Shown here one piece after another: positions 15,998 through 58,855 of a stretch of DNA of 64,000 nt. The position numbers and the translations under genes are program-made. The DNA comes from an uncultured Gammaproteobacteria bacterium (lineage in GTDB: Bacteria > Patescibacteriota > Microgenomatia > Levybacterales > UBA12049): positions 136,134 through 200,133 of the forward strand of contig CAZNAA010000001.1 in NCBI GenBank assembly GCA_964571255.1, given 5' to 3'. The first letter of the stretch is position 1. Each line of letters starts with the position of its first letter. The notes beneath the pieces were generated by a model that searched no databases, was not told the origin of the DNA, and saw nothing but the letters and a program-made list of their open reading frames with translations.

Positions 15998-16082
15998 TTA
16001 GACAGATTATACGGTATCTGTCTTTCTCTTGCAATATCCTCACTATTGCTTTTCTAAGCCTGTTTGGATAAAATAGGACAAT

Positions 16083-16364
16083 ATGCGAAAGTATGAATTA
16101 GTAATTGTTGCTAAACCTTCTTTAGGAGACGCAGATCGTAAGAAACTTCTAGAACAAGTAAAAGGTCTTTTAGGAAAAGAGATATCTGTTGTGAAAGAGG
16201 AAGAATGGGGACAGAAACCTCTTGCTTATCCTATTAAAAGAGAAGTTGCTGGTGTATACTACAGATTAGATCTTGAGACTGAAACATCTGTTCCGACTAA
16301 TGCAGAACATGAGTTTATCAGAAACGTTAATATCTTGAGACATTTGTTAGTTAGAACAAAATAA
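16083..16364 (+). CDS. rpsF: 30S ribosomal protein S6
   Basis: MRKYELVIVAKP...; sits in the conserved rpsF-ssb-rpsR arrangement. Confidence 0.9.
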   Translation: MRKYELVIVAKPSLGDADRKKLLEQVKGLLGKEISVVKEEEWGQKPLAYPIKREVAGVYYRLDLETETSVPTNAEHEFIRNVNILRHLLVRTK

Positions 16365-16365
16365 T

Positions 16366-36006: not shown

Positions 36007-36061
36007 ATTTGAATTGTCATTATTGTCAATTCGTGCTTCCTATTATATACTTCTCAGTATG

Positions 36062-43028: not shown

Positions 43029-43904
43029 ATGCCTTCTTATACACCCACCCAACTTCTCTCATTTACTAAATGGATAAAACCATATCTCAAAGTAAATAGA
43101 GAAGGGAAGAAAGTTATTACCGTTGTTATTCCAAAGAGACAAAAATTTATTATCTCTGTTAGTATTTTGTCACTTCTTCTTCTGTTGAGTGAAGTGTTTT
43201 TAGGACAACTTGGAGCCTATGCACTAACAGGAGTAGTAGGGGTTGCTATTCTCACAGATATCTTTCTCTACTGGGCACTTAAGCAAGATTTAGATGAGAA
43301 AAGTGAATACGGCGTATTTATCTTACCATTTTTCTATACCTTGTCCTTTGCTCTTTTTTACTCTCTTGTTCCAGAACGTCTCATTTATCGTTTAGGATTA
43401 ACGCTTCTGTACTCTTTTGGGTTGTACTCATTGTATTTAAGTCAGAATATTTTTGTTGTCAGTGCTATTCGAACCATTCAGCTGCTATCTGGAGCACGAA
43501 TTGTCTCTTATATCATTACGCTTCTGGCTTTTTTCTTTATGACGGCAACTGTTTTTTCATTTCACATCTATGTGTTATATGAAGGAATTCTTGTTTTTAT
43601 CTATACGTATCTTTTGATGTATCATACCCTTTGGACATATTCACTCTCAGAAAAGACCTATAATATTTCATTGTGGGTTTTGGGACTCACCATTTGTATT
43701 TGGGAATTGGCTATGGTTTTGTGGTTCTGGCCAAGTTCCTCAACAGTAATTGCGCTTTTCTTAACAGGAATTTTTTATGCCTTAGGGGGGATGTCACATG
43801 TCTGGCTTGAGCGAAAGCTATTTAAAGGAGTACTCCTAGAATATTTATGGGTAATTGTAGCTGTTTTTCTTTTTCTTCTGCTATTTAGTACTTGGGGGAA
43901 GTAG
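43029..43904 (+). CDS. Hypothetical polytopic membrane protein
   Basis: About 8 TM helices. Confidence 0.45.
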   Translation: MPSYTPTQLLSFTKWIKPYLKVNREGKKVITVVIPKRQKFIISVSILSLLLLLSEVFLGQLGAYALTGVVGVAILTDIFLYWALKQDLDEKSEYGVFILPFFYTLSFALFYSLVPERLIYRLGLTLLYSFGLYSLYLSQNIFVVSAIRTIQLLSGARIVSYIITLLAFFFMTATVFSFHIYVLYEGILVFIYTYLLMYHTLWTYSLSEKTYNISLWVLGLTICIWELAMVLWFWPSSSTVIALFLTGIFYALGGMSHVWLERKLFKGVLLEYLWVIVAVFLFLLLFSTWGK

Positions 43905-45325
43905 TCTTAATAGAATCCTATAGTATACTATCTGTTTTTTTTTCTTTCCATAAGAACATAATTTAGATTATTGATAAAAAGATATTGTTGTGAGTGTAGC
44001 GTTCACATACGAGAAAAGAGAAGAAGGAGAGTGATGAATGGGAAAATAAATAGGAAAGTGGGAGAGTAGAAGATGAGTAGGTCCTGTAGTACTGATACAG
44101 ATTGATATAGTCAGAAATAATCCTATAAGACATAAATGATATAGTTTGATACATAATGTGGATAACTATTTTTAGCTTCAATTCGTGCCTAAAAAAGATG
44201 GTTAGGGCGTATTCTTCTCGGAGGAGGACTGCCAGGTGTCGCTTTGTTCTCTTCGGGAATAGTAGCTCACAGATTTAAAAAATACGAAATGTGTTCATTT
44301 TTTTAGGGAAAAGAGATCAGTTTTCACGAACCTAAACAGGCTCAAGTTCTTAGTAGAGCAGGGTATAGGAAAAGCTCCACTTTTCACAGAATCTAGAAGT
44401 AGTATGAAGCCTCTCCAGAGGAGAGTGCTACAGATGCCTAGTTATAAACAATTAGTTTCTACTCAAAGAGTGTAGATAACACGCATATAAAGAAAGATTT
44501 AGAGCGTATTCTCTCTTAGTAGTAATTGTTTCTTCTTTAAAGAAGAAAATGTGTTGTTTTGTCAGGACGGGGCTTATATATGCTTATGTCGTATAATAAT
44601 ACTTTTACGACATGACGCATGGTTGGTTCTGGGGAGGACCTAGGTTTGGGACAGATTTGATTTTATTCATTTTTCTTCTTGTATAGCCTTGATTTTCTCA
44701 AATGCTATTCTGCTCCATTCGTGCTCCGAATACTCGATTTCTTGCTTTCAATAACTATGAGCTTTAAATTCTTTTTCACACAGCCTCCTTCCCTGTATTC
44801 AGGCATAATCTGTGAAAACAGTGTTCTCCCTGGTACCTTTTCCCATAGGGAGGATCTTTTTACCCTAAAAAGATTGTTTTTAGTTGCCTGACAAAAAACA
44901 GAGGTCCAAGTATTCATCTTGCCCTCATTCAACGCGTCCTAGGGCATTTGGTGACGTTGTAGGATCAGGCTCAGGGACGTGATTCAGGGTGGTTGTTCCA
45001 AATAGAAGAGAAATTAGATCCAAGACCCATTTCTTCTGGATCTATTGGAGTTAACCCATTAGTAAGTACTTGATTATATCTAGCTACTGCGTGTTCGAAG
45101 ACGTGTTTTGAATCTGCATTAGTCATAACTCTCTGTAGCTTTTTAATGATTAATAGACATTCGATCTTTATATAGGAGGTTCAGTTGGAAGGCCAATAGC
45201 AACTATATGTTTTTTGGTAAGTGTTCCTGAAGTTATTTCCGCATATGGTAATCTACAAAGAGATTAAGAGTTGTGAGTCATGAAGAGAATTATATAAGCT
45301 TGACTGGGGGAGTTACAAGCTGTCT

Positions 45326-46078
45326 TTACTTTTTGGGTTTAGCATAAATCATTGAAACAGTACACACCGTGCCTTTTGGGATTGGTGTTTCTTCTACTTT
45401 TGTTATTCCAGCTTTATTACAATCAAACGCAGTCCACTTCCCTGCTTTTGCTTCTATTCCTATTGTGTATGGATCGTCTCCTTCAACAACGATATTATCT
45501 ACGTTCAGAACAGTGCCTACAGGAAGTCTTGTTACAACTTGTGAATCGAGTTGAGGCTCCTTACGTACATTTACAAAGGAAGCTCTATCTAAATCTGTTG
45601 CACCATCTGTAATCTCAATAGAACGATAGAGTCTTCCGTCAGGATTCCGTCGTGATTGCTCAAGCTCTTTAGAAAGGGCAGCATTTATTGCGGCTAGGTG
45701 TCTTTTTCGAGGGGGTAGGGTAGCTGTTGGTGGTGCTGAAAGCGTTGGTTGTTGTGGATTGTTAATAAATTCTCTTGCGACTCCAATCCCTCCTAATACA
45801 AATAATGCTGATAATGAAGTGACGATAAAACCAAGTAATATTTGAGAAAATGTGTTAAATGGATCAACTCTTCTCTTTTCTGTTGATGAATATGTTTGTC
45901 GAGGATTCGCTTGTCGTTTTTTTTGTGCTTCAAGAAGAAGATAAGCTTGAATGAATATAAACACTGTTTCTAATTGTCTTTGCCTAATCTCCTCTTCTGC
46001 TTTATCTACTTCATCTCCGTTTTGGATTTGGCGTTCACGTGACTCTTCATAGGCTGTTCGATTAATGTATTGTTCCAT
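45326..46078 (-). CDS. Hypothetical single-TM protein
   Basis: Internal TM helix LLGFIVTSLSALFVLGGIGV with a C-terminal beta-rich domain. Confidence 0.45.
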   Translation of the reverse strand: MEQYINRTAYEESRERQIQNGDEVDKAEEEIRQRQLETVFIFIQAYLLLEAQKKRQANPRQTYSSTEKRRVDPFNTFSQILLGFIVTSLSALFVLGGIGVAREFINNPQQPTLSAPPTATLPPRKRHLAAINAALSKELEQSRRNPDGRLYRSIEITDGATDLDRASFVNVRKEPQLDSQVVTRLPVGTVLNVDNIVVEGDDPYTIGIEAKAGKWTAFDCNKAGITKVEETPIPKGTVCTVSMIYAKPKK

Positions 46079-46805: not shown

Positions 46806-47669
46806 ATGTTAATAGAAACAATGATTTCACTTCCTTTTTTGAGAAAAGATAAACAAATAATAACAGCTCAACTTATGGCTGGACTCTTTCCGGTATATAG
46901 AGATTTTGAGAAACTAGAAAAAATCTCTAGTGACAATAAGGAAGCTAGAGAAAGAGTGCGTCAATCTCTTGATAAATTTGCTGAGAGAGTTAACCCTGCA
47001 AGAGTAAGTGAATTAGTTCATAGGCACAAGACAAAAGAAGGAAAAATAGAAGAGGCAAACTTCTCTATTCAACCGTTTGCAGGAACTGGAACTATTTATC
47101 CATCAAGGGAGATAAATAAAAAGAGTACTAATACTCAAACACAATTTTCTGATGGAGATTATGGTTTCTTCTTAGGTGTAAAGAAAAATCCTGATACCCG
47201 TTGGCTTGCGATGTTAAGTTTTTACTCACGAGAGGATGCTTTTACTGATTATGATGAGAACACGAATATATTTGGAGATCTGCCTATATCTGTTGATGCA
47301 CTCACAGTTGTTCAACTTCAAGGAGTAGAAAGGAAAAGTTCTGATGGGTTTGAAACTACTTTATTAAGGCAATTTCAATGGGGTCATGTCATGCTCACTC
47401 TTTTTTTACAGTGGGCTCAAGCTGTAAGAGTAAGTGCTGTGGATTTAGTTCCTGCTGAATACAACTCTTGGATAGATACTACCAGTCAAGAGAAGCAACT
47501 GCGTTTTGAAAAAAGATATGATAAACCAGCACAGAATATGGGATTTAGAAGAGTAAAAAATGAGAGAGGTGAATTAACAGGACTTTATACGCTTCCTCTC
47601 TCCTACCCTTCTTTCAGAGTTGGAAAATCTGGTAAGATAAATACCAATGGAGCTAGCCAAACTTATTGA
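46806..47669 (+). CDS. Hypothetical protein
   Basis: 287-aa ORF. Its 3' end overlaps the recombinase start by 23 nt. Confidence 0.4.
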   Translation: MLIETMISLPFLRKDKQIITAQLMAGLFPVYRDFEKLEKISSDNKEARERVRQSLDKFAERVNPARVSELVHRHKTKEGKIEEANFSIQPFAGTGTIYPSREINKKSTNTQTQFSDGDYGFFLGVKKNPDTRWLAMLSFYSREDAFTDYDENTNIFGDLPISVDALTVVQLQGVERKSSDGFETTLLRQFQWGHVMLTLFLQWAQAVRVSAVDLVPAEYNSWIDTTSQEKQLRFEKRYDKPAQNMGFRRVKNERGELTGLYTLPLSYPSFRVGKSGKINTNGASQTY

Positions 47670-48582
47670 CCAGTATCTTGAATATCTAAGTATTGAGCGC
47701 AATGTCTCAAAACTTACGATTAGAGACTATAAACAATATCTTCGAGTCTTTTATAACTGGTTTTTGGTTCATATGGACGGAAAAACGGTAGCAGATCTCA
47801 ACCTCTCTGTTATTCGAAAATACCGAGTCTTTCTCTCTCAAAAGACTGATGAGCGAGGTAAGCCTCTTCAGAAAGTAACTCAAAATTACTACGTAATCTG
47901 TCTTCGTTCTTTTCTTAAGTATTTACTCAAAAATGATATTGCAACGCTTGAGCCAACTAAAATTGAACTTCCTCGTACTGAGAGTCGAAGTTTGAAGTTT
48001 TTGGAACGAGGTCAGATTGAGCAGTTAACCCATGCTGTGGATATAGCGTGTGAAGAAGGACTAAGAGACCGAGCTATTTTAGAGCTTCTCTTCTCAACAG
48101 GGCTTCGGGTTTCAGAACTAGTGAAGCTAAATCATCATCAAATTAACTTTGACAGGCGTGAGTTTGGAGTGATTGGTAAAGGAGGAAAAGGGCGAATCGT
48201 TTTTATCTCAGATGATGCAGCCACCTGGGTACAAAAATATTTAGCTGAGAGAAAGGATGCATATAAACCTCTATTTATTCGCTACTCTCGGGACATTAAT
48301 GAAGAAGATGGGGGTGAGAAGATGCGTTTAACTGCACGAAGCGTTGAGCGCATTGTAAAAAAGTATGTCCAGAAATCACGTCTTCCAGTGGATGCGACTG
48401 TTCATACGCTTCGTCACTCATTTGCAACAGACTTACTCACGAATGGAGCCGACTTGCGCTCTGTTCAGGAGATGTTGGGCCATAAAAATATTGCCACGAC
48501 TCAAATCTATACCCATATTACGAATAAGCAACTTCGAGAAGTACATAAGAGCTTTCATAGTGGAAATAAGGACAAAGAGTAA
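47647..48582 (+). CDS. xerC: Tyrosine recombinase, XerC/XerD family
   Basis: Box I ELLFSTGLRVSEL, box II HTLRHSFATDLL...GHKNIATTQIYTHI, with catalytic R, H, R and Y. Confidence 0.8.
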   Translation: MELAKLIDQYLEYLSIERNVSKLTIRDYKQYLRVFYNWFLVHMDGKTVADLNLSVIRKYRVFLSQKTDERGKPLQKVTQNYYVICLRSFLKYLLKNDIATLEPTKIELPRTESRSLKFLERGQIEQLTHAVDIACEEGLRDRAILELLFSTGLRVSELVKLNHHQINFDRREFGVIGKGGKGRIVFISDDAATWVQKYLAERKDAYKPLFIRYSRDINEEDGGEKMRLTARSVERIVKKYVQKSRLPVDATVHTLRHSFATDLLTNGADLRSVQEMLGHKNIATTQIYTHITNKQLREVHKSFHSGNKDKE

Positions 48583-54997: not shown

Positions 54998-57900
54998 TTA
55001 TTCAGCGCCTTCTGTTTTTTCAAGACAGGTGGCTGCTGAGACTTTATCAGAGGTATCAGAAAATCTCATGAGAATAACCCCCTGCGTGTCACGTCCGAGG
55101 TGTGGAATGGTTTTGAGACTGAGTCGTACTACTTGCCCATTTTTAGAGGTAATAATGACTTCCTCAGCGTCTGGTGGCACAATTTGGCCTGCAACTACTC
55201 CTCCTGTCTTATCTGTTACTTTTGCTACCTTTACTCCAAGTCCTCCTCTTCCTTGCAGAGGAAATTGATTAACTGTCGTGATTTTTCCGAGTCCATTTTC
55301 CATAATGACAAAAAGAGATTGATTGGCATCATTTTTAATAAGATCCATTCCTACTACTCGATCAGTTGAGGATGTTTTGATTCCCCGTACTCCCATTGTT
55401 GCTCTTCCCATAGGGCGAACTTCTGCTTCGTTAAACTTAATCGCTTTGCCTTCTTTTGTAACTATGAGAACGTGGTTATCTCCGCTTGAGAGATGACTCC
55501 AGACAAGTTCGTCTTTCTCCTCAAGCTTAATAGCAATCATGCCGTTTTTTCGAATATTTTCAAATTCAGATAAAGCACTCTTTTTAACTGTTCCGTTTCT
55601 AGTTGTTAAGAAAATAAAGCCTTTCGCAGTTTTCTTATAGACAATAAATGACTCGACTTGCTCTCCTGCTTCAATATTTAAAAGATTAACCATTGCTGTT
55701 CCCTTAGCAACACGAGAACTTTCAGCGATTTCATACGCTTTGGTTTGATATGCTTTGCCTTTATTGGTGAAGAAAAGAATATTGTCATGAGTCTCTGCAT
55801 ATCTGATGTGTGAGATAGTATCTTCATCCTTCATCTTCATCCCTGATACTCCCTTGCCTCCTCTGTGTTGAACGTGGAATGAGTTAAGGCTTTGGCGCTT
55901 GATATATCCAGTTTCTGTCATACTAATAACCGTTGGTTCGTTTGGAATTAAGTCTTCCTCTGAGAATTCATCCACTTTATTTTTGAATACTTTTGTACGT
56001 CGAGGGTCTGCATACTTAGTCTTGATATGAAGAAGTTCATCTTTAATAACGCTTAAAATCTTTTCAGGATGTCCAAGTAAGTCTTCTAAATAGGCAATCG
56101 TTTCTTGAACGAGTTTTAACTCATCTTCAATTTTTTGTCTCTCAAGTGCAGCAAGACGACGGAGTTGCATGTCCAGAATAGCCACTGATTGAATCTCAGA
56201 AAGTTTAAATCTTTCCATCAAATTTTTCTTTGCTTCTTCTTGATCTTTTGATTCTCGAATAGTTTTAATTACTTCATCAATATGATCAACAGCAATTTTA
56301 AGTCCTTCTAAAATATGCAGTCGGGCTTTGGCTTGTCTTAGTTCAAATTCAGAACGGCGGCGAATTACGATATATCGGTGTTTAAGGTATTCTTCTAAGA
56401 TCAGTTTGAGATTAACTGTTTGTGGAGTTCCATCAACAAGTGCGACCATATTGACAGGAAAGCTGGTTTGGAGAGAGGTCAGCTTATATAGATTATTGAG
56501 TACCTTTTTTGGAACTGCGTCTCGTTTGAGTTCAACATATACCCGAAGTCCCCGTCTATCTGACTCGTCTCGTAAATCTGAAATTCCTTCAATCTTTTTC
56601 TCTTTTACTAAATCAGCAATTTTTGCAACCAAAAGGGCTTTATTCACTTGGTATGGAAGCTCAGTAATGATGATGGCTGATTTGCCCTGCCCTACTTCCT
56701 CAACTTCTGCTTTTCCACGAATCAGTACCTTTCCGCGCCCGGTGTAGTATGCCTGCTTAATTTCATTAATATCAAAAATAGTTCCAGCAGTTGGGAAATC
56801 TGGTCCCTGAACGTATACTAATAAGTCATCAATAGACACCTCATTGGTAACAGTTACATCTGACCCCTTCATACTTCCTCCATCAGACATCTCACTGGTG
56901 TGAGAAAGAGTTGATTTACTAATTAAATGGATAATTGCATCCACTACCTCAGTTAAATTGTGAGGAGGAATTTTGGTTGCCATACCAACAGCAATTCCTT
57001 CAGATCCCATGAGAAGAAGGTTAGGCAAACGAGCTGGGAGATATTGGGGTTCTTTTTCACTTCCATCAAAATTTGGATTAAAAGAAACTGTCTCTTTATC
57101 CAAATCAGCTAGCATCTCAGCTGTGATGGCTGCCATCTTTGCTTCGGTATTATGATTAATAAATCCATTTGCAACGAATGAATGGCAGCTACTATCAACC
57201 TTTATTGAGTAGACAGTCTTCTCATCCCCTTTTGTTATTGATTCTATTTTGTCAAAGATATAGTGATTTTTAAGAAGAGTGGTAAAAAGTTCAATAGTAT
57301 CAGGTTGGAGTTGAGAAAGAATAGATGATTCTATTGCTTGATGATGTTGAATCATACCTCCATAACGATCGAAATTGTGTTTATATACAAAGGACCTTAC
57401 GTTGTCGTAAGAAAGTGTTTTATCAAGAATTTGATAGATATAGTCTTTAAGGAAAGGGACAAAGTCAAAAAGACTTTGATCTTTCTGCATGGTACTAATG
57501 ACCTGTTTTAATGCTGTTATTTTTCTTTGTGAAATAAATCCAATAGTTTCACTGAACAGGATATAATTTTTTCTTCCTCTCAGATATAGCTTATGTATAT
57601 TTCGATATTTATCAAAACGTTTGGTTGCTAAGATTCCAAAGCGTAACAGAAGAATTTGAATTTCATCAATCAATTCTTCACTCATGGAGACACATGAGAG
57701 CTCAATCATTTTTCGACTACTGCTTATTGACCCATCTCCTTCAAAGTAGGCTTTAAGAAATGTTGCTACAACAGGTTTTGGGGATTGTAAAATAAAAGGA
57801 GGAATTCTTCTTAGAGCAGATTTTTTTGATAAAAGACCAATATTTCTCAGAAATGCAATGACATATAACGAATGAATTTCAATACGATAATATGTCTTTT

Positions 57901-58855
57901 TCCCATATGAGGAAGGTGCTTTCTTAAAAAGGTGTAGCCGTGTATCTGGAAAAACCTGTTTCCACTCTGAAATGAATTGCGTGATCCATTCCTCATCACT
58001 ATTACAAAATTCTAGTTTTTCTTTTTGTGATAGTGTTCCTTCAGCAGTTAAACTTCCAAGAATGAATGCAAGGCTAGTAGTAAGGGTTTTTGGAAGTTGC
58101 TTGGTTTGTGTTCGAGAATGAGGGTTTTTGGGTATAAATTTCTTCAGGGAGACTTCATTCTCTGGCCAAAGTGTATCTGTAGTACGATCTAATACTACAA
58201 TATCTGTTTTCTTTATATCTTGAAGCAATTTCCACTCAAACTGTGGTTTTCCTGTTTCTTCATGTTTAGTCCATATAAGAACAGGGTGATTATATGATCC
58301 TTCAATATGAAACCCATGATGTGTTGTAATACGGATTGTTGGATGAGTACCGCTATTGAACCATTTCGAAGCTGTATGTATTTCCGCATTTAGTGATAAC
58401 ACTTTGATATTTGTAGATTCATCCTTTGAGTGTGTAAGTTTTTGAATTTGTTCTAATCCATTATTGGTTATAACAAGAGTGTCTCCAGTAATACAGTATC
58501 GCATGGCAGCTGGTGGATCTCCGTCAACTGAGCCAAAGTTTCCTTGACCATGAATAAGAGGATACCGCATGGAAAAGTCTTGAGCCATACGAACAAGGGA
58601 ATCATAAATTGGAACGTCTCCGTGAGGATGGTATTTTCCCATGACTTCTCCAATAATCTTCGCACTTTTTACAAACTTTGCACTGTGGTACAAGTTCATC
58701 TCATGCATAGCAAAAAGAATACGACGATGAACTGGCTTAAGTCCATCTCTGATATCAGGAAGTGCACGTTCCACGATGACAGACATCGCATAGTTAAGAT
58801 ACGACTTCTTCATCTCTTGCGTAATATTTGTTTGTTGTAATCTACCGATATCCAT
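54998..58855 (-). CDS. gyrA: DNA gyrase subunit A, interrupted by an in-frame intein
   Basis: 1285 aa. The N-terminus is classic GyrA up to AAMRY, then CITGDTLV..., resuming as [13 protein letters not shown]. The extein totals 836 aa. Confidence 0.9.
57149..58495 (-). other. GyrA intein (449 aa) with LAGLIDADG homing-endonuclease domain
   Basis: Starts Cys121 (codon aca at 58493-58495) and ends ...NGFINHN with +1 Thr. Two LAGLIDADG-like motifs: [12 protein letters not shown] and [12 protein letters not shown]. Confidence 0.8.

Follow-up and report, generated by a model that had tools for sequence, protein, structure and literature searches.

Why should a bacterial genome keep a long region without any gene between two genes that run towards each other? 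This question is raised by positions 43905-45325 of a 64-kb stretch of patescibacterial DNA (contig CAZNAA010000001.1, positions 136,134 to 200,133; hereafter the window). An original prediction, made from the sequence alone, had offered three explanations for this gap: structured non-coding RNA (ncRNA), a decayed gene or mobile-element remnant, and a chromosomal recombination region. Here, we found that most of the gap is a conserved DNA-level element, neither neutral DNA nor an RNA gene, which is kept across a whole candidate bacterial phylum. We consider the chance slightly better than even that it is a xer-linked, dif-type locus for the resolution of chromosome dimers, embedded in long accessory or regulatory DNA. 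The recombination option is thus the one that gained support, from a unique, phylum-conserved inverted-repeat site of 11-6-11 geometry (44586-44613) whose genetic linkage with xer extends to about 90% of the related loci.

A gene-free gap conserved among relatives

The basic observation was confirmed. The longest open reading frame (ORF) that overlaps positions 43905-45325 has 75 amino acids (aa), so that, as claimed, none exceeds this length. TAA, TAG and TGA each break all six frames across the region, and therefore neither recoding nor an alternative genetic code explains the gap. The two flanking genes, a DUF5656 gene (43029-43904, plus strand) and a gene for a 250-aa protein (45326-46078, minus strand), both end into it, and its composition is ordinary (GC content 0.30-0.42, close to that of its surroundings). 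The gap is about four times as long as the next largest one in the window; the statement that other gaps are below 200 bp was slightly too strong, as gaps of about 370 bp (15998-16365), 270 bp and 255 bp are present in the ORF list.

Relatives of the flanking DUF5656 protein belong to Candidatus Levyibacteriota and other Patescibacteria (Microgenomates group). An ORF-free gap of 0.8-1.5 kb follows the DUF5656 gene in approximately 140 contigs of Levyibacteriota and their relatives. In the closest relatives (loci L004, L006, L008 and L009), whose DUF5656 proteins are 68-72% identical to that of the window, the gap is likewise free of ORFs, measures 1030-1080 bp and stands between the same pair of genes. 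Twenty-five species-level genomes fetched via DUF5656 at 43-54% identity have a gap of 800-1460 bp wherever the sequence suffices, and the gene on the far side differs. The recurrence of such a gap at the same syntenic place, with a flanking protein that is only 43-72% identical, indicates that it is more than chance. The possibility had been raised that orthologous genomes carry an ordinary protein gene here; no open frame was present in any relative examined.

The alignment of the close relatives (A1) consists of fully identical blocks between variable stretches, with insertions and deletions of arbitrary length. With an nhmmer profile of the four closest relatives, the match in the window extends over positions 43881-45018. 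Since the last 366 bp of the gap have no counterpart in relatives, the conserved element comprises positions 43905-44960. Its sequence motifs are given below on the plus strand, which is the strand of the DUF5656 and xer genes.

A dif-like core and its presumed recombinase gene

The most conserved part of the element is a 28-bp dif-like core at positions 44586-44613, ATGTCGTATAA/TAATAC/TTTTACGACAT, in which two 11-bp arms enclose a 6-bp centre. The search for dif-like 28-bp sites that had been suggested with the original prediction thus yielded a candidate. Taken as an inverted repeat, the arms are identical at 10 of 11 positions in the window and at 9 of 11 in the family consensus, and the conserved core reads GTCG(Y)A(C)AATAATACTTTTACGAC. 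Dif-type cores measure about 28-31 bp, with arms of roughly 11 bp in partial dyad symmetry about a centre of 6-11 bp, and two 11-bp arms around 6 bp are the geometry of dif (PMC5357621). Core positions 4 and 19 do not covary (CA 51, CG 42, TA 30 and TG 16), which suggests a protein site rather than a helix.

The core is unique within the window and occurs in single copy in 149 of 160 related loci; no second copy was found in the loci at up to seven mismatches. A metagenome scan with the 24-mer core alone returned at least 120 contigs with one match each, those of 0.8-1.2 Mb among them being read over only about 15 kb. Viral contigs scanned with the core gave no match. An integrative island or a mobile element that integrates by use of Xer (IMEX), bounded by two such sites, was rejected on account of the missing second copy and the missing viral match. 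A canonical dif elsewhere in the window was also sought, and the best match (19 of 28 positions) lies inside gyrB and was taken as chance.

When loci were fetched via the protein, the inner 24 nt of the core were near-invariant while the identity of the flanking protein fell to 43%. Among those with at least 800 nt of downstream sequence, the core was present in all but L032, whose gene coordinates could not be confirmed. Conversely, when the DNA core was the only search sequence, DUF5656 was encoded upstream and in the same direction in 113 of the 148 loci obtained, even at 25-35% protein identity. YebC is encoded upstream in 83 of these 148 core-oriented loci, and a Xer homologue downstream on the same strand in 86. 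Of the 59 loci with at least 3.5 kb of downstream sequence, 54 have xer there in the same orientation, with a median of 1.16 kb between core and gene (range 250-5500 bp). The neighbour counts around the core lead us to reconstruct the ancestral order as yebC - DUF5656 - element - xer.

In the window, element and xer are separated by three inserted genes. The gene for the Xer-family tyrosine recombinase (47647-48582, plus strand), which we presume to be the partner of the core, begins 2.3 kb from the right edge of the gap, as originally noted. The 311-aa protein is equally similar to XerC, XerD and XerA; it scores 244.7 bits against XerD and 243.7 against XerC (both below the equivalog cut-offs) and 216 against XerA (cut-off 220), and its best match in the PDB is XerD (1a0p). 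In its sequence, the catalytic residues R, K, HxxR, H and Y can all be recognized, and the QRAQQ stretch of XerD is missing. A putative cognate recombinase with intact catalytic residues is encoded near the site.

An array of oriented boxes around the core

At least eight locus-specific boxes surround the core, with enrichments of 15- to 430-fold over the flanks. In an unbiased test of 8-mers with the core masked, GTGGATAA, TTTTCACG, CCTATAAT, GATATAGT, AACCCGAA, AATACGAA, GAGGCTAA and CCCTACTA were enriched 15- to 86-fold. In the window, the first box of the element is TCCTATAGTAT (43916-43926, plus strand), a member of the CCTATAAT/ATTATAGG family that is invariant in alignment A1 and has further copies at 44083-44089 and 44122-44128; CCTATAAT is about 60-fold enriched within the element. 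It is followed by a purine-rich block (44000-44095, plus strand, 75% purine) with GGAAAGTGGGAGAG, and a block of the GGAAGAGG type is present in 100 of 143 loci. The GATATAGT box stands at 44137-44152 on the plus strand as TGATATAGTTTGATAC, with a second copy at 44104-44111. This box was found in 100 of 113 loci, always on this strand and 46-fold enriched, and it forms a doublet (consensus TGATATAGTTTGATATAGT) phased at 11 bp.

The most enriched box is TGTGGATAA (44157-44165, plus strand), the reverse complement of the consensus DnaA box TTATCCACA. Exactly one copy per element occurs in 77 of 113 loci, never inverted and about 430-fold over the flanks; a copy with one mismatch, TGTAGATAA, is located at 44471-44479 in the window. 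Close by, GCTTCAATTCGTGC (44171-44188) carries a GARGCTAA box on the minus strand. GARGCTAA/TTAGCYTC is enriched 20- to 40-fold only between -800 and +400 of the core. Two direct TTTTCAC boxes (44321-44327 and 44381-44387, plus strand) are 60 bp apart in the clade of the window. There are about two TTTTCAC boxes per element in 98 of 113 loci, always on the same strand, and their spacing is 22-23 bp in 52 cases across lineages.

On the other side of the core, a G-rich box, GGGGAGG (44631-44637, plus strand), follows at about 45 nt and reads GGAGAAGTGG in most Levyibacteriota. Within Levyibacteriota, CCCCTACTATAGG is held 160-168 bp after the core across unconserved AT-rich DNA, and a CCGAA-type box occupies the same distance in other clades. 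A third TTTTCAC (44773), an inverted GTGAAAA (44812) and then a terminator-like hairpin (44838-44854) with a T run make up a segment (44773-44854, plus strand) that is conserved in the closest relatives only.

The upstream array lies at a variable distance from the core (40-820 bp), and the order of the modules differs among lineages (GDTT, TTGD and TTDG arrangements). Orientation, phasing, modular order and fixed distance all fit protein-binding DNA. For a dif region, a box array of this kind, with its lone consensus DnaA box in strict orientation, is unusual, and it points to further DNA-binding factors.

The 11-mer that the original prediction had noted is contained in GCTTCAATTCGTGC, and the 9-mer AATTCGTGC inside it is present at both 36028 and 44180. 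This 9-mer is over-represented in the window as a whole, with 23 sites at one mismatch or fewer versus 10.3 expected (reached in 0 of 100 shuffles), for example at 36028, 43494 (minus strand), 44180 and 49197. TCGTGCG-type boxes also recur within the element of other genomes, such as L013, L017 and L022.

A possible mechanism

If the core is a dif-type site, its two 11-bp arms would be bound by two molecules of the neighbouring Xer recombinase, and strands would be exchanged across the 6-bp centre. Recombination between the two copies of the core in a chromosome dimer would then give monomers. As the site is single-copy, recombination would be possible only between the two copies in a dimer. 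Site and recombinase gene may form one genetic module, as in XerS/difSL and XerH/difH. The remaining 1 kb or so would be accessory or regulatory DNA with binding boxes in fixed orientation, that is the DnaA box, the TTTTCAC pair two helical turns apart, the phased GATATAGT, CCTATAAT, GARGCTAA and the box at about 165 bp, on which a nucleoprotein complex might assemble that controls the timing or the direction of recombination. Binding and cleavage by Xer, the resolution of dimers and the role of the boxes are all suggested here by sequence comparison.

Candidate-phyla-radiation bacteria are uncultured organisms with genomes of about 1 Mb, whose cell-cycle machinery is largely inferred. A literature search returned nothing on DUF5656 and nothing that links these bacteria to dif, and it appears that no dif site or Xer module has been described for them before. 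A 28-mer that is recognizable throughout a phylum, together with a linked recombinase, offers a concrete and testable recombination substrate, and it could be used as a landmark in checking genome assemblies.

A more far-reaching proposal, which we put forward tentatively and regard as rather unlikely, is that Microgenomates resolve dimers by a single Xer at a chromosomal site similar to cer and psi, with the accessory DNA of about 1 kb, to which the DnaA box, the phased TTTTCAC pair and the fixed-distance box belong, building a complex that provides directionality. Resolution would in that case require neither FtsK nor a location at the terminus, and it might be coupled to DnaA and through it to the replication cycle. 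In a more radical version, the same intergenic region would also contain the origin, so that ori and dif would be neighbours.

Likeness to canonical dif and chromosomal position

Several observations weigh against a dif-type site. Its likeness to canonical dif is modest. Compared with the dif sites of Escherichia coli and Bacillus subtilis, the core agrees at 13-15 of 28 positions, which is not far above chance for AT-rich DNA. Nor are inverted repeats with arms of 11 bp rare in the window, where 16 of them have at most one mismatch. The majority of loci were obtained by way of the core itself, so that its conservation there is partly by construction; others came by way of DUF5656. When GC skew at third and fourfold-degenerate codon positions was split by gene strand, it kept one sign: over about 12 kb on either side of the core, the top strand was rich in G in most genomes. 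The core therefore coincides with no detectable switch of the terminus type, at which classical dif sites are located. Polar words that clearly invert at the site were not found with gene strand controlled; only A/T-rich words shift, and gene content, for example the Phe-rich DUF5656, confounds both the shift and the test. Neither mark of a replication terminus, a skew switch or converging polar words, was thus seen at the core. The replication-associated skew of the window is about 0.26 at 24-40 kb leftward of the element, about 0.1 around it and about 0 at 16-20 kb rightward; the decay to about zero falls within 12-20 kb of it on the right. Finally, control of recombination by the boxes is something that we infer only by their likeness to the accessory sequences of cer and psi.

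For comparison, archaeal dif sites have been accepted or proposed at a match of 14 of 28 positions to bacterial dif (PMC2958812). Skew without a switch at the core makes a bidirectional origin unlikely and leaves a terminus position unproven. On the other hand, the decay of the window's skew to about 0 rightward makes it possible, though unproven, that the element lies at the edge of a broad terminus zone. An array similar to those of cer and psi would explain both its own size and the missing skew switch, and the locus is a possible example of chromosomal dimer resolution away from such a switch.

One aspect of position speaks for the dif-type reading, namely that gene orientation in the pooled loci converges on the element: 90-100% of genes to the left are on the plus strand, and beyond +2 kb on the right 70-90% have the minus-strand orientation. 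On this right-hand side, orientation and skew disagree: for at least 10 kb in many genomes, the strand that carries 70-90% of the genes is C-rich at third and fourfold-degenerate positions. The strand that is C-rich at such positions is, by the usual rule, the lagging strand. Separately, the third-position GC skew of the top strand is +0.09 to +0.26 over 1-56 kb of the window and about 0 over 56-64 kb (the gyrA-gyrB region), a drop that may mark the border of this genome's replication terminus zone.

Comparison with known systems

Linkage between the site and the recombinase gene has been called a hallmark of the single-recombinase Xer systems XerS/difSL and XerH/difH (PMC5357621). The element resembles these systems of streptococci and lactococci (XerS/difSL) and of Helicobacter and Campylobacter (XerH/difH) in this genetic linkage, in having one Xer-family protein at the locus, and in an imperfect inverted repeat whose arms end in A-runs beside the centre (GTCGTAAAA here, TTTCCGAAAA in difSL and AGTTATGAAAA in difH). 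The Xer protein described here has no QRAQQ, just as XerS is said to lack the residues that contact FtsK (PMC5357621). However, it is of the XerC/D or XerA type (244 bits, compared with 130 bits for XerS and 46 bits for XerH). The sequence of the core is unrelated to difSL and difH, and its centre is 6 bp rather than the 11 bp of difSL. Moreover, the site lies 0.25-5.5 kb from the recombinase gene and not directly adjacent to it, and, unlike difSL and difH as described, it stands within about 1 kb of conserved box arrays.

The archaeal XerA/dif system is similar in other respects. In some species it forms a xerA/dif module, its site is not necessarily located 180 degrees from the origin, and it is independent of FtsK (PMC5357621; PMC2958812). 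Each site has 28 bp in an 11-6-11 arrangement and conserved flanks, and in either case about half of the positions agree with bacterial dif (14 of 28 in archaea, 13-15 here). The present lineage is bacterial. The archaeal flanks are about 23 bp long as against about 1 kb here, and polar words invert at the archaeal site while none was seen inverting here.

Long accessory DNA is known from plasmid sites. The cer site is 280 bp in all, about 180 bp of which are accessory; it binds accessory proteins and is restricted to resolution, independently of chromosomal position or FtsK (PMC5357621). As in cer (ColE1) and psi (pSC101), the core is joined to long non-coding DNA of fixed orientation; here this includes a box 160-168 bp from the core, and there is no skew switch. 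In contrast to these sites, the element is chromosomal, its flanks are three to five times longer and present on both sides, and its boxes are unrelated to the ArgR, PepA and ArcA sites, so that the likeness is one of presumed function.

With canonical XerCD/dif, the element shares the 28-bp length, the 11-6-11 arrangement and the single copy. The inner left arm of the core, CG(T/C)A(T/C)AA, resembles the XerC arm, CGCATAA. A canonical dif site is found where the GC skew switches and has no linkage to xerC or xerD; the present core, in contrast, is linked to xer and lies at no switch.

Two other kinds of locus may be compared. Like datA, DARS1 and DARS2 of E. coli, the element is intergenic and non-coding and has few DnaA boxes. 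In DARS, one DnaA box is oriented opposite to the next two, an architecture to be compared with TGTGGATAA followed by two TTTTCAC boxes here. Unlike datA and DARS, the element has only one consensus box and is tied to a recombinase and a palindromic core. As in the case of OLE RNA and OapA, a large conserved non-coding region stands beside, and is co-oriented with, a gene for a multi-pass membrane protein. However, OLE RNA has extensive helices supported by covariation, whereas no helix is conserved here and no Rfam family matches.

Alternative explanations

Several rival explanations for the element were weighed. In the case of a large ncRNA, transcribed with or after the DUF5656 gene in parallel to OLE RNA and OapA, one could point to nearly all boxes keeping the DUF5656 strand, to the terminator-like hairpin at 44838-44854, and to a window sequence that folds modestly better than its shuffles (z = -3.4 for the plus strand and -2.2 for the minus strand, 20 shuffles). 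Of the 89 pairs predicted in the four closest relatives, 10 show double changes, and the pair just outside the core (TA 47, TG 43, CG 23 and CA 3) has an asymmetry that tolerates wobble. Conserved RNA structure is nevertheless absent. No match was obtained in the gap at the gathering threshold in the Rfam scan (Rfam 15) that had been advised with the original prediction, nor any family match but noise at E ≤ 10, and ARAGORN detected no tRNA or tmRNA there. RNAalifold gave only a 5-bp palindrome (-3.7 kcal/mol) for 43 diverse sequences from -35 to +195 of the core, and -3.6 and -0.4 kcal/mol for 25 sequences of the upstream array; even among the four closest relatives the covariation term was unfavourable (+0.62). 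The would-be internal stem pair is most often a C-A mismatch without covariation. The core had at first been held to be an RNA hairpin on account of its T-G 'wobbles', a view that was given up because the internal position does not covary, RNAalifold finds 5 bp at most, and the 11-6-11 geometry with xer linkage explains the data better. A long-range helix between CYGGGGAGG and CTCCCTGG, predicted in close relatives, was also abandoned, as cognate duplexes of the G-box and the downstream partner (-21.65) did not differ from non-cognate ones (-21.68, p = 0.82) and gave no family-wide support. In addition, module order is rearranged among lineages, which a single RNA fold would not tolerate. An ncRNA is therefore quite improbable, and large conserved intergenic regions in such genomes should not be read as RNA genes without a test of covariation. 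Still less credible, to the point of being hardly tenable, is neutral evolution of a decayed gene or mobile-element remnant. The genome-specific 44960-45325, with its orphan 51-aa ORF and a hairpin at which assemblies break, would suit decay, and it is to this part alone that the corresponding option of the original prediction may still apply. For 43905-44960 it is already refuted by conservation, which is block-wise across the phylum with indels of arbitrary length; no relative has an open frame, no repeat copies exist elsewhere in the window, and the core has no viral match.

A DnaA-binding locus for replication control, either oriC or a titrating or reactivating site of the datA/DARS type to which the 28-bp palindrome would be accessory, is suggested by the perfect DnaA box in its single orientation. 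This box is followed by two weaker inverted relatives, TTTTCAC(G/A), phased at 22-23 bp like iterons or arrays of DnaA boxes; moreover, the region is the most AT-rich of its neighbourhood (GC 0.30), and many distinct boxes within about 1 kb are origin-like. However, there is only one consensus DnaA box per element, plus two or three weak ones, and no DnaA-trio pattern was evident in the element by eye. A search for DnaA homologues in the 160 loci (1.2 Mb in total) found none. Strand composition also speaks against an origin, and it is on this ground that oriC, considered because of the DnaA box and the phased repeats, was disfavoured: the top strand is G-rich on both sides, with a left replication-associated skew of about +0.15-0.2 that is the opposite of the left side of a bidirectional origin; in 20 of 20 loci the top strand of the left flank is rich in G, as it also is at third and fourfold-degenerate positions, with no origin-type switch in strand composition; and the skew of the window is positive for all 44 kb leftward. 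Furthermore, genes point toward the element and not away from it, and the tight linkage to xer would be left unexplained. We consider replication control unlikely. To about the same low degree we would credit a compound promoter and operator region for xer and its neighbours, or a nucleoid-organizing site, in which the palindrome is the operator of a dimeric protein and no recombination takes place. Palindromes of this kind are typical of operators, the core coincides with no skew switch, conservation extends to several -10-like boxes (TATAAT, TATAGT and TGnTATAGT), and in some loci, such as L017, a canonical TTGACA-N-TATAAT promoter comes after the element. The original prediction had held that the gap is not promoter DNA; the flanking genes do converge, as it argued, but the conserved -10-like boxes leave the claim unproven. 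On the other hand, the scan of the window for consensus promoters gave results at chance (5 found versus 5.2 expected), and it would be odd for an operator of xer to be invariant at 250-5500 bp from that gene with unrelated genes in between. A near-invariant, asymmetric 6-bp centre in an 11-6-11 geometry suits the core site of a tyrosine recombinase better than a repressor site.

The genome-specific end of the gap and neighbouring genes

The genome-specific 366 bp (44960-45325) gave matches in blastn and tblastn searches across the 160 loci only in contigs of the same organism. They contain an ORF on the minus strand (44971-45126) that is 51 aa long when counted from its ATG, and not 56 aa as first given, and for which no homologue was found among the 160 related loci. 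The hairpin quoted in the original prediction is real, and we place it, with a stem of 7 bp, at 45016-45043. Logan contigs of SRR8893624 stop at 45054 and resume at 45057 beside this hairpin, while a contig of SRR8893621 reads through.

Just before this part, a clade-specific block of 26 nt, ACGCGTCCTAGGGCATTTGGTGACGT (44932-44957), is 100% conserved in the window and in L004, L006, L008 and L009 and rare elsewhere. In relatives (L004 11868, L006 5619 and L008 1955) it directly abuts the stop of the minus-strand gene for the 250-aa SH3-like protein, and it is missing from genomes that do not have this gene. Perhaps it serves the SH3-like gene as a 3' element or terminator.

An annotated 132-aa ORF of L159 (11258-11656) runs across the 28-bp core. 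It is almost certainly a spurious gene call, and public annotations of the region need to be used with care.

The gene next to the element on its left, which is its closest and most constant neighbour, lies directly upstream on the same strand and encodes a membrane protein of nine helices (DUF5656, Pfam PF18900). The AF2 model of this protein (pLDDT 82.7, pTM 0.80) shows the nine helices and a disordered basic N-terminus; a Foldseek search of its fold against the PDB gave no match (best E = 0.8, TM about 0.2). Further to the right, the gene for GyrA (54998-58855, minus strand; 1285 aa) contains an intein with a LAGLIDADG homing-endonuclease domain inside the topoisomerase domain, according to the Pfam list of an identical Logan contig.

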